Assembly: GCF_055900595.2 (NCBI RefSeq)
Contig: NZ_CM148325.1
Direction: 5' to 3' (one strand)
Length of the DNA stretch: 64,000 nt
This document shows positions 10,428 through 64,000 of this stretch, one piece after another. The notes below the pieces were generated by a model. That model did no database searches. It saw only the letters and a program-made list of their open reading frames with translations, and was not told where the DNA came from. The position numbers were made by a program, and so were the translations under genes. Position 1 is the stretch's first letter, and each line of letters starts with the position of its first letter.

Positions 10428-11416
10428 TTTACGTCTCTCGTCGATTAATTATCACCTGTCTGCTGTTGCTAATAGCTTGTGTGATGGCAAGCGTGTGGGG
10501 ATTACGCAGCGGTGCCGTCACGCTGGAAACCTCTCAGGTATTTGCCGCGCTGATGGGTGACGCACCGCGCAGTATGACAATGGTGGTCACCGAATGGCGT
10601 TTACCGCGGGTACTAATGGCACTGTTGATTGGTGCGGCACTGGGCGTCAGCGGCGCGATTTTTCAGTCGTTGATGCGTAACCCACTCGGCAGCCCTGACG
10701 TAATGGGCTTTAACACCGGAGCGTGGAGCGGCGTGCTGGTGGCGATGGTGCTGTTTGGTCAGGACCTGACGGCTATCGCGCTGGCAGCAATGGCGGGCGG
10801 CATTATCACTTCGCTGCTGGTCTGGCTGCTTGCCTGGCGTAACGGTATCGACACCTTTCGGTTGATTATTATCGGCATCGGTGTTCGCGCCATGCTGGTG
10901 GCCTTTAATACCTGGCTGTTGCTGAAAGCGTCATTAGAAACGGCGCTAACAGCGGGTTTGTGGAATGCCGGATCGCTCAATGGCCTGACGTGGGCAAAAA
11001 CCTCGCCCTCCGCGCCCATCATTATATTGATGCTAATTGCCGCCGCCTTGCTGGTAAGGCGGATGCGCTTGCTGGAGATGGGCGATGACACCGCGTGTGC
11101 GTTAGGCGTCAGCGTCGAACGTTCGCGGCTGTTAATGATGCTGGTCGCCGTAGTACTTACCGCAGCTGCCACTGCCCTGGCGGGGCCGATTTCCTTTATT
11201 GCTTTAGTTGCGCCACACATTGCCCGCCGCATCAGCGGCACCGCTCGCTGGGGTCTAACCCAGGCAGCGCTGTGCGGTGCGCTGTTACTGCTGGCAGCCG
11301 ATCTCTGTGCTCAACAACTGTTTATGCCGTATCAACTTCCGGTTGGCGTCGTTACCGTCAGCCTCGGCGGTATTTACCTTATCGTCTTGTTAATTCAGGA
11401 GTCTCGCAAAAAATGA
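10424..11416 (+). CDS. fepG: Ferric enterobactin ABC transporter permease
   Basis: 330-aa hydrophobic ORF overlapping the fepD stop by 4 nt. Confidence 0.9.
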   Translation: MIYVSRRLIITCLLLLIACVMASVWGLRSGAVTLETSQVFAALMGDAPRSMTMVVTEWRLPRVLMALLIGAALGVSGAIFQSLMRNPLGSPDVMGFNTGAWSGVLVAMVLFGQDLTAIALAAMAGGIITSLLVWLLAWRNGIDTFRLIIIGIGVRAMLVAFNTWLLLKASLETALTAGLWNAGSLNGLTWAKTSPSAPIIILMLIAAALLVRRMRLLEMGDDTACALGVSVERSRLLMMLVAVVLTAAATALAGPISFIALVAPHIARRISGTARWGLTQAALCGALLLLAADLCAQQLFMPYQLPVGVVTVSLGGIYLIVLLIQESRKK

Positions 11417-43630: not shown

Positions 43631-43812
43631 ATCTCCTCCAGGTAAGTCGGGTACGACCTGGCTTACCTCTTTCGCTCTCGTCAGAATTCCATCAAGATTA
43701 ATTGCTAAAAAGCGTGCTAAAGAAAGAAGATCGTTATCGGCGAACGGGCCGATCACTCATGCAGGAAGCATAGATCCTTTGAGCGGAGTTTCTGATATCT
43801 GAGGAGTGCGAA

Positions 43813-44574
43813 ATGCAATTGAGCAGCAGTGAACCTTGCGTGGTGATCCTGACCGAAAAAGAGGTAGAGGTAAGCGTCAATAACCATGCTACGTTTACCC
43901 TTCCGAAAAACTACCTGGCCGCCTTCGCGTGCAACAATAACGTCATTGAACTCTCAACGTTAAATCACGTATTAATCACCCACATCAACCGTAACATCAT
44001 CAACGATTATCTGTTGTTTTTAAATAAGAACTTAACCTGTGTAAAGCCCTGGTCGCGGCTGGCTACCCCGGTTATCGCTTGTCATAGCCGTACACCGGAA
44101 GTGTTCCGGCTAGCCGCCAACCACAGCAAGCAGCAACCCAGCAAACCCTGCGAAGCGGAGTTGACGCGCGCATTGCTTTTTACCGTATTGTCTAACTTTC
44201 TTGAGCAATCGCGGTTTATTGCCCTACTGATGTATATCTTACGCAGCAGCGTCCGCGACAGCGTCTGCCGCATTATTCAAAGCGATATTCAGCATTACTG
44301 GAATCTGCGAATTGTCGCCAGTTCGCTATGTTTAAGCCCCAGCCTGCTCAAAAAGAAATTAAAAAACGAAAATACCAGCTATAGCCAGATTGTCACAGAG
44401 TGTCGTATGCGTTACGCCGTACAGATGTTATTGATGGATAACAAAAATATCACTCAGGTAGCGCAATTATGTGGCTATAGCAGCACGTCGTACTTTATCT
44501 CTGTTTTTAAGGCGTTTTACGGCCTGACACCGTTGAATTATCTCGCCAAACAGCGACAAAAAGTGATGTGGTGA
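43813..44574 (+). CDS. envY: AraC-family transcriptional regulator EnvY
   Basis: 253-aa ORF with a C-terminal AraC-type HTH (QVAQLCGYSSTSYFISVFKAFYGLTPLNY). Confidence 0.85.
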   Translation: MQLSSSEPCVVILTEKEVEVSVNNHATFTLPKNYLAAFACNNNVIELSTLNHVLITHINRNIINDYLLFLNKNLTCVKPWSRLATPVIACHSRTPEVFRLAANHSKQQPSKPCEAELTRALLFTVLSNFLEQSRFIALLMYILRSSVRDSVCRIIQSDIQHYWNLRIVASSLCLSPSLLKKKLKNENTSYSQIVTECRMRYAVQMLLMDNKNITQVAQLCGYSSTSYFISVFKAFYGLTPLNYLAKQRQKVMW

Positions 44575-44619
44575 AGGGCAAAGCGGAAACAGATAAGACT
44601 GGCATAAATCAAGAAGAAA

Positions 44620-44664
44620 TGGCGCGCCCTGCAGGATTCGAACCTGCGGCCCACGACTTAGAAG
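44620..44664 (-). other. 45-nt copy of the 3' end of tRNA-Arg (argU), a prophage attachment-site repeat and not an intact tRNA
   Basis: Minus strand reads CTTCTAAGTCGTGGGCCGCAGGTTCGAATCCTGCAGGGCGCGCCA (T-arm, acceptor stem and CCA); identity to argU as recalled stops at the anticodon-stem side and there is no D-arm or anticodon loop. Confidence 0.75.
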
Positions 44665-45086
44665 TTCCTAGAACGACATTTTAAGTCAACAACTTACCGC
44701 GCCATCTCTGCGCTCACACGTCCCACTACCTCAAAACATGTAAAGCCTTGCAAGCCATTGTGAGGCCTTATGTGTCTCAGTTTTGTCCCTCTTTTTTGTA
44801 CTAAAAAACATAGTAATTGAGGATAAACCTCATGCTATTTTCGCTTATATGCCTCTAAAGGCATGGCACTTAAATAGATAAAAGCACCACAAAAGCATAA
44901 AAAACCACACAGTAAAACCGCAATATGAAACAATAACAGATAATTAAACCAAAAACAGATAGCGCATTGTGATAATCATTCAATACTAAACAAAATATAA
45001 ACAGTGGAGCAATATGTAATTGACTCATTAAGTTAGATATAAAAAATACATATTCAATCATTAAAACGATTGAATGGAGAACTTTT

Positions 45087-46040
45087 ATGCGGGCGAAACT
45101 TCTGGGAATATTCCTGACAACCCCTATTGCGATCAGCTCTTTTGCTTCTACCGAGACTTTATCGTTTACTCCTGACAACATAAATGCGGACATTAGTCTT
45201 GGAACTCTGAGCGGAAAAACAAAAGAGCGTGTTTATCTAGCCGAAGAAGGAGGCCGAAAAGTCAGTCAACTCGACTGGAAATTCAATAACGCTGCAATTA
45301 TTAAAGGTGCAATTAATTGGGATTTGATGCCCCAGATATCTATTGGGGCTGCGGGCTGGACTACTCTCGGCAGCCGAGGTGGCAATATGGTCGATCAGGA
45401 CTGGATGGATTCCAGTAACCCCGGAACCTGGACAGATGAAAGTAGGCACCCTGATACACAACTCAATTATGCCAACGAATTTGATCTGAATATAAAAGGC
45501 TGGCTCCTCAACGAACCCAATTACCGCCTGGGACTCATGGCCGGATATCAGGAAAGCCGTTATAGCTTTACAGCCAGAGGTGGTTCCTATATCTACAGTT
45601 CTGAGGAGGGATTCAGAGATGATATCGGCTCCTTCCCGAATGGAGAAAGAGCAATCGGCTACAAACAACGTTTTAAAATGCCCTACATTGGCTTGACTGG
45701 AAGTTATCGTTATGAAGATTTTGAGCTAGGTGGCACATTTAAATACAGCGGCTGGGTGGAAGCATCTGATAACGATGAGCACTATGACCCAGGAAAAAGA
45801 ATCACTTATCGCAGTAAAGTCAAAGACCAAAATTACTATTCTGTTGCAGTCAATGCAGGTTATTACGTAACACCTAACGCAAAAGTTTATGTTGAAGGCG
45901 CATGGAATCGGGTTACGAATAAAAAAGGTAATACTTCACTTTATGATCACAATGATAACACTTCAGACTACAGCAAAAATGGTGCAGGCATAGAAAACTA
46001 TAACTTCATCACTACTGCTGGTCTTAAGTACACATTTTAA
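45087..46040 (+). CDS. ompT: Outer-membrane protease (omptin)
   Basis: 317-aa MRAKLLGIFLTTPIAISSFASTETLSFTPDNINADISLGTLSGK... ending ...AGLKYTF. Confidence 0.9.
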   Translation: MRAKLLGIFLTTPIAISSFASTETLSFTPDNINADISLGTLSGKTKERVYLAEEGGRKVSQLDWKFNNAAIIKGAINWDLMPQISIGAAGWTTLGSRGGNMVDQDWMDSSNPGTWTDESRHPDTQLNYANEFDLNIKGWLLNEPNYRLGLMAGYQESRYSFTARGGSYIYSSEEGFRDDIGSFPNGERAIGYKQRFKMPYIGLTGSYRYEDFELGGTFKYSGWVEASDNDEHYDPGKRITYRSKVKDQNYYSVAVNAGYYVTPNAKVYVEGAWNRVTNKKGNTSLYDHNDNTSDYSKNGAGIENYNFITTAGLKYTF

Positions 46041-46289
46041 GAACGCCAACTAAAATTTCCCCGAGGTGAAAATCGCCCCGGGGAATAACTAGCCATTTCA
46101 ATGTAACAATTAACCCTTAAAATAAACCCAGAAGGTTATTAACTAAATCACATAGAAAACCATCAATTATAGTGTGTATAAAATAGCCGACAGCAACCCA
46201 ATTACAAATTAATGGTTCCAGAATATCACATCAAAAAACACGCTGTATAATATTATAATTAACATGTAGACAACTTGTAATAAACATTA

Positions 46290-47039
46290 TCAGTCAATTG
46301 TTTTGTTTATTCCATCTGTGACGCCGATTATTTTCTCAAAATAATGAGATGGCGTGACACCATAATAATCTTTAAATGCACATATGAAATATGAAGTACT
46401 GTTATAGCCACATTTCTGGGCTACGACATTGATAGAATAAGAGTTTGAAGTTATGAGTTTTTTTGCATACCTCATCCTAGTATCTCTCAATATTTCAGTA
46501 AATGACGTTCCTTCATCCCTTAATCTTTTTTTTATTAAACTTTCACTCGTATAAATCAATTCCGCAATATCTTTTAAATGCCATTGCCGCTCAATATTAA
46601 AACTGATTATTCCAGTAATTTTACATGTAAATGTATTTATATTTGTTAGTATAAATGAATTTACACTTTCGCGTTTTTTGAACATGGCAAGTAAGGATAT
46701 ACATAGTCTTTCTTTTAACCAAAGGGAGTGTGAGTCTGCTATTTTAATCCCTTCAAACAGAGAAAAAACAAGCGATAATGGAGGTTCCTCTTCAGCAATA
46801 TAGCCATTCTTATCAAGAGTAAATTTGCCAGGCAACTCATTATTCACGTCGATAAAAAAGGATAAACATGTTTTCTTATCTATATCAACAATTCTTAGTT
46901 TAGAGGGGCATACTGGTAACTCTCTTCTAATTTTGTCGCTTACAATAAACAATGAATTTTTTTTGAACGAGATAACTCTCCTGTTTATAATTAAATCAAA
47001 TGATTGACAGATGAAAACTACGGAGCAAACATAATCCAT
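46290..47039 (-). CDS. appY: AraC-family transcriptional activator AppY
   Basis: 249-aa [36 protein letters not shown]...; AT-rich gene and AT-rich upstream region (47040-47600). Confidence 0.9.
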
Positions 47040-47714
47040 CTTGCACCTATCATAAAATTAAAACAAGTTGATAGTAGTCAAATAACAGCCAATTAAATAC
47101 ACAATCATAATCAGGATGATGTGCATTTATATTTTTATACACAAAATTATAGTTTGCAAATTTTAATAAGTTTCATTTAAGATTAAATTATTATATGTAT
47201 ATTGTTTTTTATTCTAACGTATTTCAAAGTTACATTTTTCAACGCTTACTATGCTTTTTATTAACATAAACTCACTACAACGCACCTGAAACCTCTTGCT
47301 ATATATATGTCAACCGTTTGAATTTAAAATAAAAAGAGTATCATTTTTACTTGCATTTCTTATCAAGTCACATTCAACAACAGTAAAAAAACATTATTAG
47401 AACCATTCAATTAACAAAAAACCAACATCCAGCTTGCTTAATTTTTCTTTATTAAACGATATTGAAAATCAATTGATAAAATACATCTAAACAACCTTTT
47501 GGGGCGCAAAAGCATAACATCAAACAAACAAATAACACACCGAAAAAACTCACAATTAATAACCTATGATATACATACTGTTTATTATGGTTGAATAAGC
47601 CACTCGATATCTGGTGCTACGGAAGTGTCCACACGGTTTAGCAGCACCCGATACTTTTTCCAGGCTTCCAGCAACGAGTTTTCTTCCTCCGTTGCATATA
47701 CAGCTCACCTTTTT

Positions 47715-48008
47715 TCACCCACGATTAACCAACAGCCAGACCAGCAGACACGCCACCACCGGCACAGCAAAATCCATCAGGCTTGCCACATCCCATGCAC
47801 GTGTATCAAAACCGCCCCACCACGGCATATTCATTCGCTTGCCATGCCCGAACATTTCGATCCAGCGATATTCTGCCTGGGTGTGTTCACGCGCAATGAA
47901 GAACGTACAACCGGCTATCGCCCCGTAAGCCCAGTTTCCGGTAAAAAGACCAACCAGTACCTGCGCAGCCACAGCACAAAGTGCATGAAGGAAAGGTGTT
48001 ATATCCAT
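47715..48008 (-). CDS. Hypothetical small membrane protein (prophage-borne)
   Basis: 97-aa ORF with two strongly hydrophobic segments (LHALCAVAAQVLVGLF..., FAVPVVACLLVWLLV); no family recognised. Confidence 0.4.
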   Translation of the reverse strand: MDITPFLHALCAVAAQVLVGLFTGNWAYGAIAGCTFFIAREHTQAEYRWIEMFGHGKRMNMPWWGGFDTRAWDVASLMDFAVPVVACLLVWLLVNRG

Positions 48009-48018
48009 TATTCCTCCT

Positions 48019-48723
48019 TTATCCGATATCGCTTCGGGAAGTTAATAACAACTTTAATTCTGACTCAAGTTCATCAACTCTTTCAGTCAGCTTCTGGATA
48101 TGGTGAATCAGTGGAACAACCAGACGTTCGTACATTACACCTTCGGCAACAAGGCCATTGCTGGAAATAGCTTCAGGAGCATCATCTTCGTTAGCTGGTC
48201 GCCAGTGTACAAACTGAGGGGCAATTTCTCCTACTTCCTCGGCAATCAATCCGTAGAACCCCCAGTCACGCCTGTCATTTTCGCATTGCGACCTGTACCA
48301 CACAGGGCGCATCCTGAAAATGACATCGGCGTGCTCTGAATCTATCGTCTCTACTGAATGTTTATAGCGGATAGACGATGTGGACCGCAGTACAGACGAA
48401 ATTGCAGGGTCAGGATTAAGATAAAGGTTTGCCGCCGCAGTAGTCGTGCCCAACCCCCATAAATAAAACGCTTCGCGGCCAGTCAGCGGGTAAAAATCAC
48501 CGCCATAACGACCGCTTTCCAGATCGTTCGCTTCCACTTTGTTTTTCAGCTTATTATCAACTTCAGTTTTTGTGTATCTGGTGCTGATATCCTGCTTTGC
48601 ACTGGTCATATCAATCTGAAGCGTTGATACTTTTCCGTTAATTGAGGAAATATCTTCCTTAGTTTTACTGACATCTCCCTTTAGCGTGGTGATATCTCCA
48701 GGAATTACTGTCGATGTAGCCAT
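48019..48723 (-). CDS. Putative tail-fibre segment with a C-terminal intramolecular-chaperone (peptidase S74-like) domain
   Basis: N-terminal repetitive coiled-coil-like region (TLKGDVSKTKEDISSINGKVSTLQIDMTSAKQDIS) followed by GFYGLIAEEVGEIAPQFV, typical of the self-cleaving chaperone domain of tail fibres and spikes; recognition from memory. Confidence 0.5.
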   Translation of the reverse strand: MATSTVIPGDITTLKGDVSKTKEDISSINGKVSTLQIDMTSAKQDISTRYTKTEVDNKLKNKVEANDLESGRYGGDFYPLTGREAFYLWGLGTTTAAANLYLNPDPAISSVLRSTSSIRYKHSVETIDSEHADVIFRMRPVWYRSQCENDRRDWGFYGLIAEEVGEIAPQFVHWRPANEDDAPEAISSNGLVAEGVMYERLVVPLIHHIQKLTERVDELESELKLLLTSRSDIG

Positions 48724-48732
48724 TTGTCTCCC

Positions 48733-49014
48733 TCACATCCAGCCACGAAGTTGATGCTCAACAACAACCGCGTATTCATCGAATATTGACGGTGTTTTCA
48801 CATCATTAATGATGCGCACGTTTACAAAATATCCGTCTTCCTTAACACATACCGGCTCGCCATCTTCAGTAATTTCCCCGGTTTCTTTGTACACGTTACC
48901 TATCACATCAATGAGAACATTGTTCTGCATCACCTCGTCATCGTCATAACCAATGCTATCCATAAAGGCCGAAAAGTCGGCCTTGTCTGTGAATTTGATA
49001 ATTAAGTCTCGCAT
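48733..49014 (-). CDS. Hypothetical acidic protein (prophage tail region)
   Basis: 93-aa ORF between the two tail-fibre-like genes; no family recognised. Confidence 0.4.
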   Translation of the reverse strand: MRDLIIKFTDKADFSAFMDSIGYDDDEVMQNNVLIDVIGNVYKETGEITEDGEPVCVKEDGYFVNVRIINDVKTPSIFDEYAVVVEHQLRGWM

Positions 49015-50024
49015 TATATTACCTCTCCCATTTGTGCATCGGTTAATTCTTTATGCCATATACGAAAATTACGAATGTGACCGAAAAGATGACGTAGACC
49101 GCTATTAGTCTGTCCCCCAATCCTGAAGAAATAACCAGATTTAACACCGACATGATCCGTGGTTTTAGGAGTCCCATGCTGGGCATTGCTAACGAAATGC
49201 ACATTACCAGATTCATTTAAAACAAATCCAAGAACAGATTTTTGTTCAAATAATACTGGCGATACGGCGGCTACTGTACTACCGTTTTTATTGTGCATCG
49301 TAACACCAGGAAATAATGTTGAACTAATAGCAACACTTATATATTGACCCGGAGTTGTGCTCCCACCACTGGTATCAAAAATTCGTGGTGCTGCATTTGG
49401 CGTTTCGTTCCAGTTTGTATGAACTTCAGCTAGAAATGTTAAAGGTGGTGTACCGATATTGTTATTTGTTGGTATATTCACCATATCACTGGCTCTTGTG
49501 ACTGGCGTTGCCTCAGTAATAATAAACGAAGAAGCGCACGAACCGCCTTCGACCTGAGGAGTTGCAACATAAATATAATCATCTGCACCAGTGCTTCCCC
49601 CTTTTGGTGGTGCATATTGCACCATCGCACCGATCATATTTTCTGTATCAAGTGCCTTAATTGTTGCCTCAAAGAAAATCCATTTGCTTGCTTCATTTTT
49701 AACAGCCCTTGCAGTAATACGACTTGCAGCGCCGCCAGTTTTATCAATCGATAAATCTGTCATATTTAAGTAAGCATCACCCAGGAATTTGTAGGTAGAT
49801 CCATCATATTCTTCAAATCGTAATCGACATCTTAAATTTGGAGTCCCACTTTGTACCCTGCATGAGATAGTTACATACTTTTCATCGCCGGTAACATCAT
49901 ATCCTTTGCTTCCAGATACTGTGACAATAGAAATGGCTGAGGTTTGCCCCACCATTTCTGGTTTTAATGTGAATTTTGCGTACTGGAAACCAAAATCATC
50001 TACACCTGATGTATTTAAAATCAT
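49014..50024 (-). pseudogene. Putative phage tail-fibre / receptor-binding protein, probably 5'-truncated by IS1
   Basis: ORF 49014-50048; its first Met codon lies inside the IS1 terminal inverted repeat and the next in-frame ATG (50024) has no ribosome-binding site; C-terminus ...GYFFRIGGQTNSGLRHLFGHIRNFRIWHKELTDAQMGEVI resembles lectin-like tail-protein domains. Confidence 0.45.
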
Positions 50025-50049
50025 ATTTGATGACGGTAATGACTCCAAC

Positions 50050-50553
50050 TTATTGATAGTGTTTTATGTTCAGATAATGCCCGATGACTTTGTCATGCAG
50101 CTCCACCGATTTTGAGAACGACAGCGACTTCCGTCCCAGCCGTGCCAGGTGCTGCCTCAGATTCAGGTTATGCCGCTCAATTCGCTGCGTATATCGCTTG
50201 CTGATTACGTGCAGCTTTCCCTTCAGGCGGGATTCATACAGCGGCCAGCCATCCGTCATCCATATCACCACGTCAAAGGGTGACAGCAGGCTCATAAGAC
50301 GCCCCAGCGTCGCCATAGTGCGTTCACCGAATACGTGCGCAACAACCGTCTTCCGGAGCCTGTCATACGCGTAAAACAGCCAGCGCTGGCGCGATTTAGC
50401 CCCGACATAGCCCCACTGTTCGTCCATTTCCGCACAGACGATGACGTCACTGCCCGGCTGTATGCGCGAGGTTACCGACTGCGGCCTGAGTTTTTTAAGT
50501 GACGTAAAATCGTGTTGAGGCCAACGCCCATAATGCGGGCAGTTGCCCGGCAT
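50050..50553 (-). CDS. insB: IS1 InsB reading frame (expressed as an InsAB' fusion by -1 frameshift)
   Basis: 167-aa ORF ...[33 protein letters not shown]...; overlaps insA. Confidence 0.85.
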
Positions 50554-50747
50554 CCAACGCCATTCATGGCCATATCAATGATTTTCTGGTGCGTACCGGG
50601 TTGAGAAGCGGTGTAAGTGAACTGCAGTTGCCATGTTTTACGGCAGTGAGAGCAGAGATAGCGCTGATGTCCGGCGGTGCTTTTGCCGTTACGCACCACC
50701 CCGTCAGTAGCTGAACAGGAGGGACAGCTGATAGAAACAGAAGCCAC
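50472..50747 (-). CDS. insA: IS1 InsA protein
   Basis: 91-aa [43 protein letters not shown]... Confidence 0.85.
50488..50499 (-). promoter_or_regulatory. IS1 programmed -1 ribosomal frameshift site (A6C run)
   Basis: Minus strand reads CTTAAAAAACTC in the insA / insB overlap. Confidence 0.5.
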
Positions 50748-50801
50748 TGGAGCACCTCAAAAACACCATCATACACTAAATCAGTAAGTTGGCAGCATCA
50801 C

Positions 50802-51430
50802 CCATTACCGCCCATAATGATGATATTAGTGACGCCCTCACTAAATTCTGCGTAGCTCTCAATATCATCATTTGGATCAAAAGTTTCTTTATCCTTACCT
50901 GACCACTCAGCACCGCCAGACTGAGTGATGATATTTTGTGGTTTAATATTCCAGTCCAGCTCATAACGTTCAATACCATCGCCCTCAATGATATTTTTCC
51001 CCGTTGTGATTGCCTGAACGGCAAGCCATTCAATACGTGCACGAATAGCTTTAGCCTGATTTACAATCGCCTGTTTAACTTTAATATTACGCGCTCCAAA
51101 AGCATTGTATTGCTCAGGTGATACACCAGCAGGGCGCACAGCTAACTTATTTGGATCAATGCTGCTTTTCGGCTTCATATAGCCTGGACGAATTGTTTTT
51201 GATTCGAACCCTTCGTCACGTGAAACTTTACTACCCACCATAGGAGAACAAAACGCTGCAATTGGGATATTTGGATCGTCGATTGTATCAAGAATAATAT
51301 CGCGCGATTCAAACATTACCGAGCGAGTAAAAAACAAACTGGTAAACAACGCATTTAGTTGTTTTTGTACATCTACAGCATTAACCACCTGTACAAGCTG
51401 AGTAGGCGAATATAAATCAACCATACGCAT
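50802..51430 (-). pseudogene. Divergent lambda-E-like major capsid protein gene, 3'-truncated by IS1
   Basis: ATG at 51430 gives MRMVDLYSPTQLV... (compare lambda E MSMYTTAQLLA); continues ...NIITQSGGAEWSGKDKETFDPNDDIESYAEFSEGVTNIII (compare lambda E NNITQSGGTEWSKRDKSTYDPTDDIEAYALNASGVVNIIV), then runs into the IS1 end after about 206 codons. Confidence 0.6.
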
Positions 51431-51640
51431 CCTCTTTGCATTCATTAAAAATAATTGTGGATATATGCTATCACCGATATTTGTCATGCGAACACATGCA
51501 ACCGAGTGCAATGTTGTATAAAGTTTTGGGGTGACAACTTCAGTGCGGACAATTAGTGTTAATATCTTCACTCCCTTTGGTCGGGATTTATGTAGCATGC
51601 CGGAAAATTTATTTTTTCTGGCTTTTTTTATTGGCAATAT

Positions 51641-52090
51641 TTAAAACGGGATATCATCTCCCCATTGCTCATTATCTCCCACTGGTGGCTGGCTTCCTTG
51701 CTGATCTGCCTGTTGTTTTGCTCTGTTCAGTGCGTCAGTAGCCTGCCCCTGTTGGCCTTTATTGCCGCCCGGTCGCACCGATCGCGCACTGATTACGCTG
51801 TCTGCGATAACCTGCCAGCCCTGCCGCGTTTCGCCGTTCTGTCCAGTCCACTGGCTCATCTGCATGTTACCCGCCACGCTCAGGAGTTCGCCTTTGTGAT
51901 GCTTTGCCAGCGCGTCGGCTTGTCTGCCAAACGCCAGGACAGATAACCACATCGTCGCCTGACCGTCATCCGACTGACTGCAGGGCAGTGATACCGCCAT
52001 ACGCGCCAGCGTCATGGGGGTGCCCTTGCTGGTCTGTTTTGTCTGCGGGTCGTCCACCAACCGCCCGTAAACTGATATTTGCGCCGTCAT
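51641..52090 (-). CDS. ssb: Single-stranded DNA-binding protein
   Basis: 149-aa ORF with an OB-fold-like N-terminal region, a Gly/Gln-rich linker and the acidic SSB tail ending DDIPF. Confidence 0.75.
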   Translation of the reverse strand: MTAQISVYGRLVDDPQTKQTSKGTPMTLARMAVSLPCSQSDDGQATMWLSVLAFGRQADALAKHHKGELLSVAGNMQMSQWTGQNGETRQGWQVIADSVISARSVRPGGNKGQQGQATDALNRAKQQADQQGSQPPVGDNEQWGDDIPF

Positions 52091-52332
52091 GCTGCCTGCT
52101 CTCCGGACTTAATATTGATTGTTGTCACTTCCTCCGCTTCAGCAATCTCCCGTTCGGTCAGAGTGGCAAAGTTTGCAGCCGCCGTTGTCATGAATGCGCT
52201 AATCAGTTCGGGATGTGCTTTCGCGTATCCTTCCCCGGCGTTGCGGTCGATGATTTTTATCGACACCCTTAACCAGTGTTCCGTCAAATCAAGGGCGTGC
52301 GATTGTGATTTTTTTGTGTGCTTCGCTGTCAT
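52087..52332 (-). CDS. Hypothetical protein, translationally coupled to ssb
   Basis: 81-aa ORF whose stop overlaps the ssb start (ATGA); no family recognised. Confidence 0.45.
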   Translation of the reverse strand: MTAKHTKKSQSHALDLTEHWLRVSIKIIDRNAGEGYAKAHPELISAFMTTAAANFATLTEREIAEAEEVTTINIKSGEQAA

Positions 52333-52379
52333 AGGCTTTATCTCACAGCAGTAAATTAAAATTTTTGCGTTTTAACCCT

Positions 52380-52610
52380 TCACCTGTTCACCTTTTGATA
52401 TTTTCTCTTTTAATTCATAATGTTAATGGGTGAACAGTTTCACAAAAACTATTCACCAACTGTTCACCACTGTTCACCCTTGAAGCTCAATAAACAATCA
52501 AAAAGGTGAACAGTGAATAGTTTGGTGAACAGTTCATAAATAACTGTTCACCCTATAATATACTGATATAAAAGATATTTATGACAGGGTGAACAGTGGT
52601 GAACAGTTAT
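52380..52610. repeat. Iteron array (about ten copies of CTGTTCACC / GGTGAACAG in both orientations), putative satellite origin of replication
   Basis: Copies near 52385, 52429, 52451 (variant), 52461, 52471, 52505, 52524, 52545, 52588 and 52598, interspersed with AT-rich spacers; the octamer TGTTCACC is the P4 type I iteron as recalled; lies directly 3' of the primase gene. Confidence 0.65.
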
Positions 52611-52619
52611 TCCATAAGT

Positions 52620-54440
52620 TTAATTTTTGCTATCGTCATTAGTGACCGATACACATGATGGCATCCAGTCTTCTGATTCCTCCGTCAGTGTCACGTTTGA
52701 ACGCAAACCGTGCTTCGTTTTCCGTTTCATATACTCCCTGCCATATTCCGCCATTGCCCCCGGCATATCTTTACCGAAGCGCGTCAGTGTTACAGGTTTA
52801 CCAAACCCATGTGCCCTCATATAAGCCAGATAGGCATGATAGAGATACCTGCGTGGGCTAAATGGCACAATTTCAGCATTACCCACTAACAGGCCATCAC
52901 ACATTACCGATGCCATGAGATAGCCGCAGAAGTCCACCAGCGAATCCCCCTCTCGCTTTATCGCCAGTGCTTCTTCAGATTTCTGCTGCTCATATAACAG
53001 GCGTCTGGCTTCGTCCTGATCATCAAACCGTGTAAGCAGATGACGAATCACTACCGCCAGCTCACCTTCTATTTTTTCCGCCAGCATCGAATCGCGTTCG
53101 TTCTCCGGTACAACTTCCGAAAAATTGAATATCACCCGACGACGTGAGATCCCCCCGCTGCGGTCACTGAATGACATGGCGTTATTGTTAACCGCCAGCA
53201 CTACTGCCGGAATACGCGTTGAATAGGGGGCTTTGTGTTTCGGGTCAATTGCCACCTTGTCACCGCCTGTAATGGCCTTAATCCCTGCCCCATCACCAGC
53301 GTAGCGGGTCATATCCGGCATGATAATCAGCGAAAAGCCAACCACTAACGCACGTTCCCTTGCATCTTCCAGCGCCTTCATGCTTGCTGATACTGTATTA
53401 GCCTTACCCGCCAGCATGGTGCAAATCTCCGCCATCACACTTTTACCACTTCCCCCCGGCCCTGTTACCTCAATGAATAACTGCCAGTCGTACCGGTTCG
53501 CCAGCACCATGAATAATGCCGCCAGTACGCGATCTGCCTTGCGGTCATTCTCAGCCACCGAACGGCGCAACCACTTCCAGAAATTCGGCGCATGTGTTGC
53601 CAGCGTTTCCCCCTCTGCTGGTGGGCTGAAAGGTAATTCACTGGCAATTAACAACCAGTCGTTTTTGTTATGCTCCCGAAAATTACCTGTTCTGGTATCA
53701 AATACCCCGTTACTGAATCCAATCAGGTTACGGGCTGTATTCCCCATTACAGGCAAACTTAACTTCATGGTATCTACCGCCGATTTAATGGCGTTCTGCG
53801 AATAGCTGATCTCCACATCAATGAAAATCTGCGCCATAGCACGCTGTAACTCTTTATCCTGAACCGGCTCCCATACAACGCCGTTGTAATGATGAACGGT
53901 GTCAGAGTCGGCATTGATTGCCAGTTCGCCGCCGTAATGTGCCAGGAGAACTTCACCGCGCTGGCTGGCCCCCATCTGATTCAACGCCAAAGATGAAGCA
54001 CGCTCGTCATTTTTGCGCTCTGCCTTCTTCACTGGCAGTTCAATCACCAGACTTTCCCCATGCTCCGCTTCAGCTTTTAGGCCGACAAGGCGCGGAGTCC
54101 AGTCTTCAGGCTCTCGATCAACAAAGCTACGGTAACAACGTGCTTCCTTTACGCCTGCAATAGCAAGTAATGTCGCAACCTTCGTCAGATTTTTCTCTGC
54201 GATCTTTCCGGCACGATAAACACGCACATAATGACGGCCTTCATCGATAATTTGCATATCATCCAGGTTTTCCAGTTGTTCCGTACCCAGAATTACTGGT
54301 GGTGTATCATCTGCTGCAATATGCTTACCCGCCCATTCATTCCATTCTTTTGCATGGCTCCAGGCATCACTGCCAGCAAAAATGATGACTTCTGTCATTT
54401 TGTCGCGCGGTTGGTATTTTAAGTTCGGAGCACGTTTCAT
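52620..54440 (-). CDS. Primase/helicase-type replication initiator (P4 alpha / D5-like, P-loop NTPase)
   Basis: 606-aa ORF; Walker A GPGGSGKS in the C-terminal half; iterons immediately downstream. Confidence 0.8.
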   Translation of the reverse strand: MKRAPNLKYQPRDKMTEVIIFAGSDAWSHAKEWNEWAGKHIAADDTPPVILGTEQLENLDDMQIIDEGRHYVRVYRAGKIAEKNLTKVATLLAIAGVKEARCYRSFVDREPEDWTPRLVGLKAEAEHGESLVIELPVKKAERKNDERASSLALNQMGASQRGEVLLAHYGGELAINADSDTVHHYNGVVWEPVQDKELQRAMAQIFIDVEISYSQNAIKSAVDTMKLSLPVMGNTARNLIGFSNGVFDTRTGNFREHNKNDWLLIASELPFSPPAEGETLATHAPNFWKWLRRSVAENDRKADRVLAALFMVLANRYDWQLFIEVTGPGGSGKSVMAEICTMLAGKANTVSASMKALEDARERALVVGFSLIIMPDMTRYAGDGAGIKAITGGDKVAIDPKHKAPYSTRIPAVVLAVNNNAMSFSDRSGGISRRRVIFNFSEVVPENERDSMLAEKIEGELAVVIRHLLTRFDDQDEARRLLYEQQKSEEALAIKREGDSLVDFCGYLMASVMCDGLLVGNAEIVPFSPRRYLYHAYLAYMRAHGFGKPVTLTRFGKDMPGAMAEYGREYMKRKTKHGLRSNVTLTEESEDWMPSCVSVTNDDSKN

Positions 54441-54724
54441 TTGTTACCTCCGGCAACTAACATTGCCCGAATTTTGCGGATATAGCCTGCGGCACGCCTC
54501 TGATTATCTGTCTTGCAATTTTTTACCAGAATGAAATCTCTTTCGAACTGCTGACGCGGCATAACACATTCAAAATCATAACCATCACGCAAATAAGAGA
54601 CACGACGATCATCAACCGAAATAATCTTTACCCGATAGCCATAGCTGTCTTTGAAAATATCCCCAAGGCTGATTTTTGAATGAGTTTGACCGCTGGCAAT
54701 AAAGCCAGAAAATTTATTTTTCAT
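54437..54724 (-). CDS. Hypothetical small basic protein, translationally coupled to the primase
   Basis: 95-aa ORF with a GGAG ribosome-binding site 8 nt upstream of the ATG; stop overlaps the primase ATG (ATGA). Confidence 0.45.
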   Translation of the reverse strand: MKNKFSGFIASGQTHSKISLGDIFKDSYGYRVKIISVDDRRVSYLRDGYDFECVMPRQQFERDFILVKNCKTDNQRRAAGYIRKIRAMLVAGGNK

Positions 54725-54727
54725 TTT

Positions 54728-54952
54728 TTATTCTCCGGTATAGCTCTGGTCGTGTATTTTTATAGCTTCATCCAGCTCTTTGATGACAGGATCAAGTAAC
54801 GTAATTAACGCTCCAGCTAAATTAGCATCCCGTTCATCGTGTTCCGCATTTGTTGTCCCATCAAGCCAGGTTGATAAGATTTCTCGCATATTTTTGCCAC
54901 AAACGAGCGCGTTTTCAGCATGTGTCAGCACTTTAAAATAAAGATCATTCAT
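54728..54952 (-). CDS. Hypothetical small acidic protein
   Basis: 74-aa ORF in the same operon-like array upstream of the primase. Confidence 0.4.
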   Translation of the reverse strand: MNDLYFKVLTHAENALVCGKNMREILSTWLDGTTNAEHDERDANLAGALITLLDPVIKELDEAIKIHDQSYTGE

Positions 54953-55148
54953 GGCACACCTCCTGACGAATACGGGCGGCGAATATCATCACGTAGCCAG
55001 TTGGGGATTGCAGCCGGGCTTCCTGTTCGCTGGCGGCCTCGATGGTAATCACGCGCGGTTGTGCCGTACTCAGGGCGATAAAACGCCAGATGTATTTATT
55101 CAGGTTGTGCGGGTCCCGCCCTTGCGGGTGTGTGGTATGATTTCTCAT
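54945..55148 (-). CDS. Hypothetical small protein (first gene of the leftward replication operon)
   Basis: ATG at 55148 with a GAGG ribosome-binding site 7 nt upstream gives MRNHTTHPQGRDPHNLNKYIWRFIAL...; the longer ORF to 55259 is probably an extension. Confidence 0.4.
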   Translation of the reverse strand: MRNHTTHPQGRDPHNLNKYIWRFIALSTAQPRVITIEAASEQEARLQSPTGYVMIFAARIRQEVCHE

Positions 55149-55287
55149 AGCTACCTCGATACTGTTGCTATCGTTGGTGGTTAGAAGCCCGTTGGTGTTC
55201 CTAGCACCTTCGGGCTTTGCTTTTTTAAGTGCCTCCGTGTTAAGGTGGTCACCTAACAATGAAAAGGCTAATTCAATAGGTGGTCAC

Positions 55288-55479
55288 TTGTCAACGATCA
55301 AACGCGATAAAAGTCCTAAGGGTGATGGGCAATCTCCACAATTCAGAATGCGAATTTCTCCAGAGCTAAAAGAGCAATTCGACAAAGAAGCGCAGAGCGA
55401 CGGCATAAGCCTAGCCAACTGGCTTAAAGAATTAGGGCGCAAAGAGCTGCTACGGCGCGGTATTGAACCAAAAGGATAA
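55288..55479 (+). CDS. Putative ribbon-helix-helix (Arc/MetJ-like) DNA-binding protein
   Basis: TTG at 55288 preceded by AGGTGG; product ...FRMRISPELKEQFDKEAQSDGISLANWLKELGRKEL has the beta-strand then two-helix pattern of Arc-type repressors; an alternative ATG start at 55348 is possible. Confidence 0.5.
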   Translation: MSTIKRDKSPKGDGQSPQFRMRISPELKEQFDKEAQSDGISLANWLKELGRKELLRRGIEPKG

Positions 55480-55506
55480 GAATAATTGAAGTCAAGGAGC
55501 TAACAC

Positions 55507-55863
55507 ATGAAATACGAATTCTTCGCAACAAGTAGCAGTAGTTTGGATGTATACATAGTCACTGTATCAAACGATTCTGGCTCTCTAATCATGACTTGTA
55601 ATTGTCCAGCAGGAAGTAAAGGTATTCTATGTAGACACCGTAAAGCTTTAATTACCGGAAAAATCCGCGGTATATTCACTCCCCCAAGAAGGAATAATCC
55701 CGAAAAATTACAAGAAGCTATAAATTTAATAGCCACATATGGCATAGATAAAACATTAAAGTTGTACACTGATGAGTTAGAACGAGCAGAACAGACTTGG
55801 ATAAGTGTTCGCGATAATTTGAGAGCAATGATAAACGCTCTTGTTGAACCACCTAAATATTGA
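55507..55863 (+). CDS. Small SWIM-type zinc-finger protein
   Basis: 118-aa ORF with an AAGGAG ribosome-binding site; CNCPAGSKGILCRH fits the SWIM CxCx(n)CxH motif. Confidence 0.55.
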   Translation: MKYEFFATSSSSLDVYIVTVSNDSGSLIMTCNCPAGSKGILCRHRKALITGKIRGIFTPPRRNNPEKLQEAINLIATYGIDKTLKLYTDELERAEQTWISVRDNLRAMINALVEPPKY

Positions 55864-55929
55864 ACTGTTCACATTGCCTATCAGGCGATAACCTCGTATT
55901 CTGATTAAGGCTAACTATATACTCACATT

Positions 55930-55955
55930 GGCGACCAATTCTGGTCGCCTTTATC
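55930..55955 (+). terminator. Rho-independent terminator after the SWIM gene
   Basis: GGCGACCA-ATTC-TGGTCGCC hairpin followed by TTTATC. Confidence 0.5.
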
Positions 55956-55994
55956 TACCATTTTTATAATATCATAGATTAAGAGTGTTAATCC

Positions 55995-56816
55995 TTACCC
56001 CCTGAATGGAATTGATGAGGATTTAATTTCCACAGAACCAAATCCTCTTGAATCCAAAAACATTTTTATACCAGCCTCAATAAAATCATAATCGCTTGTC
56101 GGGCCAATTGTAATGCTTTTAATTGGTAACTTTCTATTATCTTTATTATTAATAATGATATAAGGGATGATACCATTATTATTTATTCTAAATTTCACAT
56201 CTGGCATTTGTATCCACGGAGTAAACACCAGTCTAAATTCATTTTCTTCGATAAAACTAGGATGTTTAAAAAATGGGATATATTTAGATATAAATTGATA
56301 CGTAGAGACCATTGTTACAAAATGATCATTCATTTCTTTAATGTTAATACCATTACAAGAAAAAAACTCATCCAACTCCTTACTCATCTTTGTAATATCG
56401 TCATTATTTGAATATATAACATCATGTGCAACACAATTTAAATAAATATTTTGACAAAAACTCACAAGTTCATCCGCATCAAATTCAATGCAAACGCCCT
56501 GTTTATTTCCGTAACCTCTCCACTGACTTAACTTATCGTTTTCTTTACAAAAAGATATGCTATAAACATGTTTATCAATCCCTTTTTCTTTTTGTAACTT
56601 CCCTTTCTCATACATGTCAAGAGACTTGAGCAAAATAGTTTTCTTATCTTTTGGGATGATATTATCATCAACTATTTTAATTGTATTTCGAAAACATTCA
56701 CATCCATGGTTAGACTCCTCTTTATCATTTAAGAAATATATATTTGTAGCCCATAAAGAATTAGAGTCTAATATACCTTTCAAACCAAAAAGATCTGTAT
56801 AATGAAATATAGCCAC
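55995..56816 (-). CDS. DUF2971-like protein of unknown function on an AT-rich cargo segment
   Basis: GTG at 56816 preceded by AGGTGG gives (M)AIFHYTDLFGLKGILDSNSLWATNIYFLNDKEE...; the N-terminal aromatic-HYT ... LW ... NDxxE pattern is assigned to DUF2971 from memory; markedly AT-rich by eye compared with the neighbouring int/alpA. Confidence 0.6.
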   Translation of the reverse strand: MAIFHYTDLFGLKGILDSNSLWATNIYFLNDKEESNHGCECFRNTIKIVDDNIIPKDKKTILLKSLDMYEKGKLQKEKGIDKHVYSISFCKENDKLSQWRGYGNKQGVCIEFDADELVSFCQNIYLNCVAHDVIYSNNDDITKMSKELDEFFSCNGINIKEMNDHFVTMVSTYQFISKYIPFFKHPSFIEENEFRLVFTPWIQMPDVKFRINNNGIIPYIIINNKDNRKLPIKSITIGPTSDYDFIEAGIKMFLDSRGFGSVEIKSSSIPFRG

Positions 56817-56833
56817 AATGCCCCACCTAATAG

Positions 56834-57064
56834 TTAAGTCGTTTCCCACTCACCTCGAATCCATGCCTGCACTTCTGAAAGACGATATGCAACAGCAGTG
56901 GAACCAATCTTGATCCGCTTAGGAAATTTTCCTTCCTTCTCCAGCTTCCAGCGTGTGCTGTTCGCAAGAGTGGTTAGCTCCCGACATTCTTTCTCACGGA
57001 TCATACGATCGATGTTAGGAATGTACTCCAGACCCTTTTTATCAACAATTGCCATTTTTTTCAT
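56834..57064 (-). CDS. alpA: AlpA-family transcriptional regulator / excisionase-like protein
   Basis: 76-aa MKKMAIVDKKGLEYIPNIDRMIREKECRELTTLANSTRWKLEKEGKFPKRIKIGSTAVAYRLSEVQAWI..., immediately downstream of the integrase. Confidence 0.8.
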   Translation of the reverse strand: MKKMAIVDKKGLEYIPNIDRMIREKECRELTTLANSTRWKLEKEGKFPKRIKIGSTAVAYRLSEVQAWIRGEWETT

Positions 57065-57065
57065 G

Positions 57066-58301
57066 TTAACCAGCCTTTTGTTTGAGGATTGTCACTTTTG
57101 AATCAGCACCTGCGATGCTATTGAGATATGTAGTCCAGAGTTCCAGAGCATCCAGTTTTTTAGCCATAAACTTACTCCGGTTGTAAACACCCGCCACGCC
57201 AGGTAGCGCATGGCCTAACAGTTGTTCTACTACATAAAATTCAACACCGAGATCACTTAGATGAGTAGATAGCGTTCTTCTAAGGTCGTGTAGTGACCAT
57301 TGTTTTTCATGGCCCAAACGTTTACCGATTTTCCCCCCAATCTTGCTTACGCTTTCTCTAATTCGCAGACTTCCCAGCACATAACCAGTATGTTTTGTCT
57401 CTTCGTGAACATCCGTTACCCACTGTCGTAGAATTTCAGGTACTGGTCTGACGATTTCAACACCAGTTTTTGAGTGATCTTTTGGTACCGTCCAAACCCA
57501 ACTTTCGAGATCCCATTCGCTCCATTCAGATAATCGGGCTTCACTCATTCGACATCCAAATACTGTACAAAGCACAAACATTTTTCGCGTGTATTCAGAC
57601 ATTAGTTTTAAATCAGGCTCGACAAAAATTGCCTTCCAGAGCTGGCCGAGTTCGGCTTCATCCAGAACCCGATCCCGCTTACCTGCAATCTGCCCCACAT
57701 CACTCATGCGCAAATCCTTTAAAGCATCACACGTCGCGTACTGGCGTACCCGACAAAAACGAAGAGCTAATTTAGTGTCAGAAAAAACATACGCCGCCAT
57801 AACTGGTGCATTACGTTTAATTCGGTCAAAACAGTCCAGCCATTCATATAGGTGAGTGTCATTTACGGGCAAATGACCGATATAGGGAAAGATATGCTTT
57901 CGAAATCTGCCAAGCGTTACAGCATGAGTTTTACGACGCACCTTACAGTAATTTTCATACCAGTAATTTAGTGCATCCTCCACTGTGACCGGCTTTAAGC
58001 GTTCTTCAGCCTGAATCTTAATCTGGATACGCGGATCACGTTTGTCAGCCAACCAACCACGGCACTCGTCGCGCTTTTCCCTTGCCTGTTTGAGTGACAT
58101 ATCAGGATATTTACCCAACGTTAGCCAGACCGGAGCAGCCCGGCCACCTGCTAACCTGTAGAAGAAAACAAAGCTCACAGCCCCTTTAGTACTCACACGA
58201 ATAGAAAGCCCCTTTCCATCAGCAATGGTGATCTGCTTTTCTCTGGGTTTCCCCAGATATCCTTTAAGCGCTTTGTCGCTCAGTTTGTTCTCGCCAGCCA
58301 T
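57066..58301 (-). CDS. Tyrosine recombinase, P4-type integrase
   Basis: ATG at 58299-58301 gives MAGENKLSDKALKGYLGKPREKQITIADGKGLSIRV...; C-terminal catalytic region with ...HDLRRT... and ...LLGHAL...Y motifs; the 5' end sits about 160 bp from the point where the E gene breaks. Confidence 0.85.
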   Translation of the reverse strand: MAGENKLSDKALKGYLGKPREKQITIADGKGLSIRVSTKGAVSFVFFYRLAGGRAAPVWLTLGKYPDMSLKQAREKRDECRGWLADKRDPRIQIKIQAEERLKPVTVEDALNYWYENYCKVRRKTHAVTLGRFRKHIFPYIGHLPVNDTHLYEWLDCFDRIKRNAPVMAAYVFSDTKLALRFCRVRQYATCDALKDLRMSDVGQIAGKRDRVLDEAELGQLWKAIFVEPDLKLMSEYTRKMFVLCTVFGCRMSEARLSEWSEWDLESWVWTVPKDHSKTGVEIVRPVPEILRQWVTDVHEETKHTGYVLGSLRIRESVSKIGGKIGKRLGHEKQWSLHDLRRTLSTHLSDLGVEFYVVEQLLGHALPGVAGVYNRSKFMAKKLDALELWTTYLNSIAGADSKVTILKQKAG

Positions 58302-58433
58302 TTTTAGCCCCAAAAAGCAATACAAGCTGCAATACAGAGATGATTGCAACACACAGATAACGAGGAAAATTCAGTGAAAGCACCAGATAAACTTATTCTT
58401 TATTATCAAAAGATTAAGTGTAAAAACCAGCAA

Positions 58434-58709
58434 CTACACGAAAGCCTCAGAAAGCCATGCTAAGTGCTTGGGTTTGACATAACCCGGCGTAAATTCAGAG
58501 GTGGAGCCGCCACGGGATCGGATAACCTCACCGGAAACAATCGGCGAAACGTACAGCGCCATGTTTACCAGTCCCGGAATTTGTGAGAGATAGACTTTTT
58601 CCGTGGTGAAAGGATAGGTTTCACGGAAAAACAGGCGCAGAAACAGCGGATCGAACTTAAAGTGATGCTGGGTCGATGCCAGTAATTCTGCAGTTGTATA
58701 TACAGACAT
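58434..58709 (-). pseudogene. Lambda-like major capsid protein E, N-terminal 82 codons only
   Basis: MSVYTTAELLASTQHHFKFDPLFLRLFFRETYPFTTEKVYLSQIPGLVNMALYVSPIVSGEVIRSRGGSTSEFTPGYVKPKH then unrelated LAWLSEAFV and a stop; similarity to lambda E ends at 58463/58464. Confidence 0.8.
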
Positions 58710-58764
58710 AAATTATTTCCATAAAAAAAGCCGCACAGGCGGCCTTTGTTGATGAAGGGGAAGA

Positions 58765-59097
58765 TTAAACGATGCTGATTGCCGTTCCGGCAAACGCGGT
58801 CCGTTTTTTAGTCTCGTCGCTGGCAGCCTCCGGCCAGAGCACATCCTCATAACGGAACGAGCCGGACTTGTAGAACGTCAGTGTGGTGCTGGTCTGGTCA
58901 GCAGCAACCGCCAGAATGCCAACGGCTGCACCGTCGGTGGTGCCATCCCACACAACCAGCTTACGGGTAGTGCCATCCAGCATCAGCGGGGTCATTGCAG
59001 GCGTTTTCGCACTCAATCCGCCAGGCGCAATTGCTGTATGAGCCGGATCACTGTTACCCAGCGGCTGGTAATGGTTAAACTCTTCTTTTGTCGCCAT
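58765..59097 (-). CDS. Head decoration protein (lambda D-like)
   Basis: 110-aa [42 protein letters not shown]...FAGTAISIV, close to lambda gpD as recalled. Confidence 0.9.
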
Positions 59098-59106
59098 AAC
59101 TGCCTC

Positions 59107-60418
59107 TTATACCGGTAAAGCTTCAGGTGTATTAAGTAATTCTTTATTGGTATCAGATGCCAGGTTACCTGCAGCCAGCGGTGCCGGTGCACCCTGCATC
59201 AGACGATCCAGCGCAGTGTCACTGCGCGCCTGTGCACTCTGTGGTGCTGCAGCCAGAATGCGGCGGGCCGTTTCCACGGTCATTCCGGGGGTTTCGGCCA
59301 GAACGCGCGCCTGTTCTTCGCGTCCGTGAGCCTCCTCACAGTTGAGGATCCCCATAATGCGGCTGTTTTCTGCCGCAACCGCTGCGGTGATCTGCGCGTT
59401 CACGTCCGGCTGCGCCGCGCTGGCGTTTTCGCCCTCCGTCGCTGGCACCACGTCAGTAACGTCAGCCTGCGAAGCAGTGGCTGAAACAGTTGTTGATTGA
59501 GTCTCTTTGGTCATTCGCCCTCCTGAGAGACGGGATTTACGCGCATCCAGTGCATCACGCATGACGGTGATCGCATCGGTGCTGTTAACAAGTTCATCAG
59601 CCAGTCCGGCATCAATGGCCTCCTGACCGCTGTACACTGCAGCCTCGGTATCCAGCACAGCCTGCACAGACAGGCCGGTATATGCCGACACCTTCTGCGC
59701 AAACATCTGGCGGGTTGCGTCCATCCGGGACTGCAGTGTCTCCCGGACGTCATCCGGAAGATGGCTGTAGGGATTGCCATCCACCTTATGGCTGCCGCTG
59801 TAAATCAGCGTGATTTCCACACCCTGTTTCTCCAGGGCAGCACCGTAATTACTGTGAGCCATCATGACGCCGATGGAGCCTGTCCGGGCGGTCTGCGTGA
59901 CCAGACGCCGGGAGGCGGCACTGGCAAGCAGCTGACCTGCACTGCAGTTCATGTCGTTGGCCAGCGCCCATACCGGTTTTATGTCACGCACACGGGCGAT
60001 GATGTCAGCGCAGTCAAATGCCCCCGCCACCATTCCGCCTGGCGTGTCCATATCGAGCAGAATGCCGTCCACCATCGGGTCGCTGGCAGCCTGTTGCAGA
60101 CGGGCGATAATGCCGTTGTAACCGGTCATCCCCGAGTACGGCTGCAGCGCCCGCGTCCGGCTGACCAGCGTGCCGGACACCGGCAGCACGGCGATGCCGT
60201 TCATGACCTGATAACTGCGGGCCTGTCGTGGTCCGTCATCATCACCGGATAATGCCAGCGTCGCGAGTGCCTCCTGGGCAGTCAGGCTGTCGCCGGACAC
60301 CGCATCCGTCAGGCGGCTGATCCCAAGCTGGCCTGCAAGCGCACAAAAGAAAACCCGCGCATAGGCGGGTTCAAGCATCAGCGGCTCATTAAAGGCCATG
60401 CTGGCAATATGCGGGAGA

Positions 60419-60438
<20 letters not shown>
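59107..60438 (-). CDS. Head maturation protease / scaffold (lambda C-like, with nested Nu3-type scaffold frame)
   Basis: GTG at 60438 gives (M)TAELRNLPHIASMAFNEPLMLEPAYARVFF...; overlaps the portal gene end by about 20 nt as in lambda. Confidence 0.85.

Positions 60439-64000
<3,562 letters not shown>

Follow-up and report, generated by a model that had tools for sequence, protein, structure and literature searches.

The window, the 64,000 nt of contig NZ_CM148325.1 (RefSeq assembly GCF_055900595.2) analyzed here, very probably holds a lambdoid prophage at the appY–ompT locus whose major capsid gene E is split by a PICI of the helper-embedded kind (HE-PICI) and of the 11capE type. The capsid-gene fragment next to ssb, hereafter E', would be the late-zone capsid homolog of this satellite, cut afterwards by an IS1-associated deletion, and we hold this whole reading with high confidence. 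The initial annotation had recognized E' and a second, nearly lambda-identical E fragment, with coordinates and counts correct to within a few bases; what it missed is that the satellite lies within the helper's own E gene, an arrangement already published as HE-PICI 11capE (PMC10111431). The truncated E' is a dead copy of an already described gene, and the IS1-linked deletion, a case of ordinary decay, is the sole local peculiarity. The satellite element extends over 50803-58474 in the window (Table 1).

Table 1. Features of the satellite, its helper prophage and the IS1 junction, in window coordinates.
Feature	Position	Strand	Basis
Helper side tail fibre gene, 3' part from ~codon 455 of 794	49014-50034	-	PHROG 1419 'tail protein', profile positions 455-793
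IS1, 768 bp	50035-50802	-	Terminal repeats GGTAATGACTCC... and ...GCAGCATCACC readable; InsA/InsB ORFs on the minus strand
E' pseudogene, 5' 207 of 346 codons (5' 60%)	50803-51424	-	Pfam PF03864; WP_000228111.1 match
ssb–E' spacer, 216 bp	51425-51640	-	Same spacer in L001, L008 and L009
PICI ssb (replication zone)	51641-52090	-	PHROG 44, E = 7e-38; annotated SSB in all relatives
Small conserved PICI gene upstream of ssb	52087-52332	-	PHROG 1231, E = 2e-48
Putative PICI replication origin, nine GGTGAACAG iterons, both orientations	52384-52606	.	Downstream of the primase gene
PICI primase (pri)	52620-54440	-	PHROG 864 DNA primase, E = 6e-186
DUF4222 gene	54437-54724	-	Synteny with L001 annotation
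Small hypothetical gene	54728-54952	-	Synteny with L001 annotation
Icd-like gene inside ORF	54945-55259	-	NCBIfam NF033153 Icd-like, E = 7e-19; synteny with L001 annotation
Variable zone differing from founder 11capE	55093-56844	.	No alignment to L009
AlpA-like HTH/excisionase gene	56834-57064	-	Position and length as the L008 'AlpA family transcriptional regulator'
HE-PICI tyrosine integrase, 411 aa	57066-58301	-	410/411 identical to L008 integrase
Doubled TGTATTGC motif of HE-PICI attP arms	58317-58336	-	Exact match TGTATTGCAGCTTGTATTGC
Helper prophage major capsid gene E, 5' 82 codons, split by the satellite	58464-58709	-	74/82 lambda E
att identity block AACCCAAGCA (attL crossover region, E codons ~79-82)	58465-58474	-	Published att alignments

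E' reads from 51424 down to 50803 on the minus strand and comprises 207 codons plus 1 nt of a Phage_cap_E homolog, close to the ~206 codons given initially, its reading frame being housed in the ORF of 50798-51637. The ATG at 51424 is preceded by AAAGAGGA and is identical to the annotated start in every intact relative. At the other end, the frame passes from codon 207 through one hybrid codon to a TGA within the IS1 terminal repeat; the window copy is a pseudogene. The fragment matched Pfam PF03864 Phage_cap_E (E = 6.2e-21) over model positions 4-183 of 329, i.e., the N-terminal part only, and PHROG 29 'major head protein' (E = 7e-47), whereas a named NCBIfam family was found neither for it nor for most of the small PICI ORFs. 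It is identical at 206 of 207 residues (99.5%) to the intact 346-aa protein WP_000228111.1 (L001 and the founder 11capE). The spacer after ssb, first put at roughly 210 bp, measures 216 bp, and a promoter/terminator scan of 51300-52700, which covers it, revealed neither a promoter-like site nor a minus-strand terminator, only plus-strand hairpins.

The second E fragment in the window is a different matter. It is identical to lambda E residues 1-82 at 74 of 82 positions (90%) and diverges exactly after H82, whereas E' shares 35% identity with lambda E over the 207 aa of the fragment and 28% with the helper E fragment (58464-58709) over their common 75 aa. Given these values (35% and 28% versus 90%), E' and the prophage fragment are homologous yet clearly different genes, and the earlier view that E' is not a duplicate of the near-lambda piece holds.

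To whom E' belongs was assessed from its intact relatives. A megablast search with 50780-52400 recovered the E' and ssb region from 364 complete E. coli genomes at a coverage of at least 80%, the matched regions being annotated as major capsid protein, single-stranded DNA-binding protein and hypothetical protein; the full E' gene alone occurs in 395 of the 5,426 complete E. coli genomes searched. Seven of the 395 contexts were inspected by eye (L001 and L004-L009; L008 is strain 980-2 and L009 the founder element). All seven belong to elements headed by genes for a tyrosine integrase and an AlpA-like protein. In each, pri, a small ORF and ssb precede E' (346 aa), and D' (113 aa, 'head decoration protein'), then an HTH protein and usually a small terminase, come after it. 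Four integration sites are represented: prophage gene E (L001, L004, L008, L009), cspD–clpS (L005), tRNA-Pro/yejM (L006) and roxA–phoQ (L007). An eighth copy, interrupted by IS1, was found in a PICI located in prophage portal gene B (L003), and EcCICFT073 (L002), at roxA–phoQ, encodes a 55%-identical E' homolog in the same module. That the gene is satellite-encoded, as first proposed, is borne out by this survey and by the EcCICFT073 homolog: E' directly follows ssb inside a PICI in 7/7 intact relatives, and its full-length counterpart, WP_000228111.1 (346 aa), likewise resides in PICIs. The closest homologs thus lie in PICIs, whereas the opposite case had envisaged them always in lambdoid head operons.

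Phage genomes offered no comparable relatives. A tblastn search of 50,697 phage records with full-length E' gave 437 matches, all below 60% identity, the best being lambda E at 42%; no phage homolog above this value was present in the set. In a lambdoid head operon, C/Nu3 and D precede E, and FI/FII follow it, whereas in every relative of E' it is ssb that comes before and D' that comes after. Because E' is 55% identical to its EcCICFT073 homolog, reaches only 42% with the best phage protein and occurs in PICI contexts, it represents a PICI lineage of the E family rather than a piece of a phage head operon. The initial annotation had considered that the fragment could be a remnant of the head operon of a second lambdoid phage, joined to the satellite ssb by the IS1 event. 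A rearrangement did occur at its 3' end, where IS1 lies without a target duplication, but the 5' side, with the start codon, the 216-bp spacer and ssb, is collinear at 99% with intact PICIs. This collinearity with L001, L008 and L009 refutes such an origin; added to the low identity of all phage homologs and to an E'–D' order after ssb that reverses the phage D–E order, it leaves the idea with practically no probability.

Next, the integration site was compared with published HE-PICIs. The 11capE element of E. coli NRG857c is an HE-PICI at site E:Phage_cap_E:80, a site with 201 instances (Tommasini, Mageeney & Williams 2023, NAR Genom Bioinform, PMC10111431); excision and replication, and only those, have been demonstrated experimentally for it (PMC10111431). 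In the window, int follows next after the helper E 5' fragment (58709 to 58464) on the same strand. The att core was fixed from published att alignments, and from 58531 downward on the minus strand the window attL matched the published attL of the founder Eco567.11 at 162 of 163 bases; attR being deleted in the window, this comparison covered attL. A 7-mer returned as the att core by a longest-common-substring search was discarded as spurious. In HE-PICIs, a doubled TGTATTGC motif occurs on both sides of the attP centre, at 132 ± 2 bp on the downstream side and 81 ± 2 bp on the upstream side (PMC10111431). The downstream copy lies 133 nt from the core centre in the window, as compared with the published 132 ± 2; the upstream copy falls in the deleted part and is seen in L001 at 10970-10989, its end 85 nt from the AAGCA centre.

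The integrase agrees with the HE-PICI clade, differing at one of 411 residues from that of the E-site HE-PICI of L008 and showing 99.3% nucleotide identity to the founder across int. Against 11capE and its helper in NRG857c, window segment 50803-55092 aligned at 99.1% and segment 56845-60304 at 99.3%. The element can therefore be assigned to the published type HE-PICI 11capE / E:Phage_cap_E:80, with which it shares the integration site in prophage gene E, the 10-bp core, the motif distance, 99% nucleotide identity over int–alpA and over the Icd-like gene, DUF4222, pri, ssb and E', and the capsid protein WP_000228111.1 (206 of the 207 remaining residues). Three differences were noted: the window copy ends at E' codon 207, where IS1 cuts it, and lacks D', HTH, terS, the accessory genes and attR; its variable zone holds a DUF2971 gene missing from the founder; and its helper is located at appY–ompT, that of the founder at icd. 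With the satellite sitting inside the E gene of its helper, the second E fragment (58434-58709) is explained as the attL half of that gene.

The gene map of the satellite is in line with this assignment. Gram-negative PICIs have ordered zones, are mostly unidirectional and measure about 10-20 kb (PMC6092414, PMC10111431). According to the ORF map, family matches and synteny with EcCICFT073, the window element follows the same zone order, with int and alpA, a variable zone, pri, ori and ssb, and a late zone, the last of which is cut short here; intact relatives are ~11 kb long. The slot upstream of ssb is held in L001, L008 and L009 by WP_000125506.1. Nine copies of the GGTGAACAG iteron occur at 52384-52606, against 0.45 expected in the whole window, and the iterons, which separate the primase gene from the small ORF preceding ssb, are the presumed PICI replication origin. 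A PICI ori has been described downstream of pri, the same position as in the window (PMC10111431, PMC6092414). A search of 47000-60000 at gathering thresholds detected no C4/isrK-type immunity RNA or other Rfam family.

The variable zone comprises a 104-aa plus-strand ORF, a SWIM-like ORF of 118 aa (55507-55863, plus strand) and a DUF2971 gene (55995-56849, minus strand). The DUF2971 protein (284 aa) matched Pfam PF11185 (E = 1e-11), and for the SWIM-like ORF the L001 annotation gives a SWIM zinc finger protein. PADLOC gave weak matches only for the genes of this zone, to PDC-S31 and PDC-S62 for these two, respectively. The zone (55093-56844) may represent accessory or defence cargo.

As for the helper, envY, ompT and appY were recognized at 43797-47039, left of the prophage, and the ORFs farther left have sizes consistent with the nfrBA and cus operons; the prophage is therefore placed at the DLP12-type locus. 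That ompT is present speaks against an origin from Shigella or E. coli B. At 59107-64000, the genes for the C protease, portal B and W and most of the terminase A gene have remained intact, with ~97% identity to strain 980-2, so that functional-looking helper head genes stand upstream of a permanently split E.

The undeleted version of this arrangement is found in strain 980-2 (L008; NZ_CP127324), at the same appY–ompT chromosomal locus. Its gene order is nohD, A, W, B, C, D and 5' E; the HE-PICI; 3' E, FI through J, lom, stf and tail fibre genes; and appY, ompT and envY. The window aligned to L008 at 99.9% over 43797-50034 (partner L008 32264-38501, spanning appY, ompT and envY), at 99.2% over 50803-55198 and at 97.1% over 56846-64000. 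Absent from the window is L008 14476-32263, a stretch of 17,788 bp, in whose place IS1 is found. The loss is bounded by E' codon 207 on one side and by ~codon 455 of the side tail fibre gene (794 aa) on the other, in agreement with the PHROG 1419 profile span of 455-793. The satellite has thereby been deprived of the last 40% of E' (its 3' part), of D', the HTH gene, terS and a DUF2971 gene, and of attR; the helper has been deprived of three quarters of E, at the 3' end, and of every tail gene as far as the middle of the side tail fibre gene.

IS1 is bordered by two unlike 9-mers, TTTGATGAC and CATTACCGC, which form no target-site duplication, and it is therefore not a simple insertion. From the comparison with L008, we infer an IS1-linked deletion of 17,788 bp, which may have arisen as one deletion or by recombination between two IS1 copies. 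Since attR is gone, the satellite would no longer be able to excise, and the helper prophage would be left without the capacity to build heads or tails. Megablast across the IS1 junction did not find it in 5,426 complete E. coli genomes, and a 40-mer spanning the junction had no exact match in the species-representative genome set.

An IS1 insertion in the same PICI capsid gene was found in O121 strain 201805972 (L003 12432-13201), 3 bp from the window junction. Shared ancestry of the two IS1 copies was rejected, as the insertion points are 3 bp apart and a separate 9-bp duplication, TACCACCCA, accompanies the O121 copy; the two events are independent. Two insertions this close may mark a local IS1 target hotspot. 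The PICI region of L003, within a prophage portal gene, holds several further IS1 copies.

One alternative is that the truncated gene still yields a 208-aa product which, as a dominant-negative capsid fragment, interferes with superinfecting lambdoid phages. In its favor, the start codon, the Shine-Dalgarno sequence and the region upstream have been preserved, and the TGA in the IS1 end closes the ORF. Such a product would, however, lack the C-terminal 40% of an HK97-fold protein; the spacer offers no promoter-like site, late transcription from the crippled helper is doubtful, and a junction unique to this genome, among both genome sets searched, gives no sign of selection. We regard this alternative as extremely unlikely and retain the reading of E' as a dead remnant.

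Comparison with other systems places the intact gene more precisely. EcCICFT073, the model Gram-negative PICI (Fillol-Salom et al. 2018), for which helper-dependent induction, excision, replication and packaging have been demonstrated experimentally (PMC6092414), shows the same module order of DUF4222, pri, small ORF, ssb, (PerC), major capsid homolog and decoration homolog. E' is 55% identical to its c1499 and D' 54% to its c1500, and the integrases share 45% identity. In contrast to the window element, EcCICFT073 is chromosomal, located between roxA (ycfD) and phoQ and not in a prophage gene, carries a different capsid allele and is packaged through Rpp with the helper TerS (PMC6739421). With lambda gpE, E' shares the family PF03864, and full-length E' aligns with it end to end at 42% identity; D' is 41% identical to the prophage D protein over 78 aa. 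The satellite order is nevertheless reversed relative to lambda, with E' before D', and E' is located after the satellite replication genes rather than after C/Nu3.

P4-like satellites encode Psu, Sid and Delta, which act in capsid size and transactivation, along with the alpha primase. None of the three is annotated in the intact relatives L001, L008 and L009 or found among the window ORFs, and the resemblance to P4 is limited to the primase and integrase. Capsid-forming PICIs (cf-PICIs) encode capsid, protease, portal, head–tail connectors, TerS and TerL. In the seven intact relatives, the late zone consists of capsid, decoration, HTH and TerS genes only, and the lack of genes for a portal, a protease and a large terminase there excludes self-sufficiency of the cf-PICI type. 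The initial annotation had suggested capsid self-sufficiency, with E' building satellite-only capsids. This satellite type does hold major capsid and decoration homologs and a small terminase, and its capsid-type genes are under purifying selection, but prohead protease/scaffold and head-completion genes, too, are missing from L001, L008 and L009, E' in the window is truncated anyway, and EcCICFT073, equipped with the homologous c1499 and c1500, is packaged in phage-sized capsids and is transferred normally when these are deleted (PMC6092414, PMC6739421, PMC6893505). We consider self-sufficiency very unlikely.

Capsid remodelling, the other role initially put forward, finds no support in the EcCICFT073 data. 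Knocking out c1499 or c1500 left both transfer and the interference with lambda as they were (PMC6092414), and the capsids are phage-sized (PMC6739421). SaPIbov5 Ccm and the PmCI172 capsid homolog resemble E' in being satellite-borne homologs of the helper major capsid protein, linked to small capsids (PMC6092414, PMC6893505). The difference is that Ccm redirects capsid size, whereas the E. coli lineage shows no size redirection and neutral knockouts (PMC6092414).

Still, the intact gene is maintained. Pairwise dN/dS values of 0.08-0.14 were obtained between E' alleles 79-87% identical at the nucleotide level, and the E' protein is therefore maintained by purifying selection in intact copies; E' is a working protein-coding gene in intact elements. 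Its most likely role would be that of a capsid subunit, paired with its cognate D'. We propose the following course of events. A lambdoid prophage at the appY–ompT (DLP12) locus would have had its E gene interrupted at ~codon 80 by an 11capE / E:Phage_cap_E:80 HE-PICI, whose late zone, placed after pri, ori and ssb as in most Gram-negative PICIs, would have encoded E' (346 aa), D', the HTH protein and the small terminase. The IS1-associated deletion of 17,788 bp would afterwards have removed the rest of E', D', the HTH, terS and accessory genes, attR, the 3' helper E and the tail genes. In an intact element, E' and its cognate D' could serve as a pair of capsid subunits on the helper portal, scaffold and protease, with their importance mainly in particular helper contexts; alternatively, E' could substitute for the helper E while the helper gene is split.

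That E' and D' form a putative working shell on the helper portal and scaffold, or replace the split helper E, precisely when the satellite is helper-embedded, we consider unlikely but worth stating. In intact members the E'/D' pair is under strong constraint (dN/dS about 0.08), yet knockouts in the single PICI examined gave no phenotype. Tommasini et al. suggested a satellite capsid copy as a backup of the interrupted helper gene, the redundancy not being essential (PMC10111431). The question touched here is what the capsid and decoration homologs of PICIs are for, with purifying selection on one side and neutral knockouts on the other; the truncated window copy is of no help on function and cannot serve as a shell or stand-in. 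As a discovery, it carries little weight: the satellite type, with its insertion in the helper's capsid gene and a capsid homolog of its own, has been in the literature since 2023, and the capsid homolog of E. coli PICIs since 2018. The window presents a decayed example, with a satellite locked in place and a prophage without tail genes.

The intact relatives also showed variation at the far end of the late zone. The end next to attR, deleted in the window, forms a second cargo slot, which is occupied by HEPN and DUF262 genes in the founder (L009 11037-12753) and by a DUF2971 gene in L001 (11174-11932), L004 and L008 (16544-17302). The satellite small-terminase gene is intact in strain 980-2 (L008 15886-16437), and in two intact-looking HE-PICIs it has an internal stop (L001 12039-12590, L004 8039-8590); late-zone decay is therefore common even without IS1.
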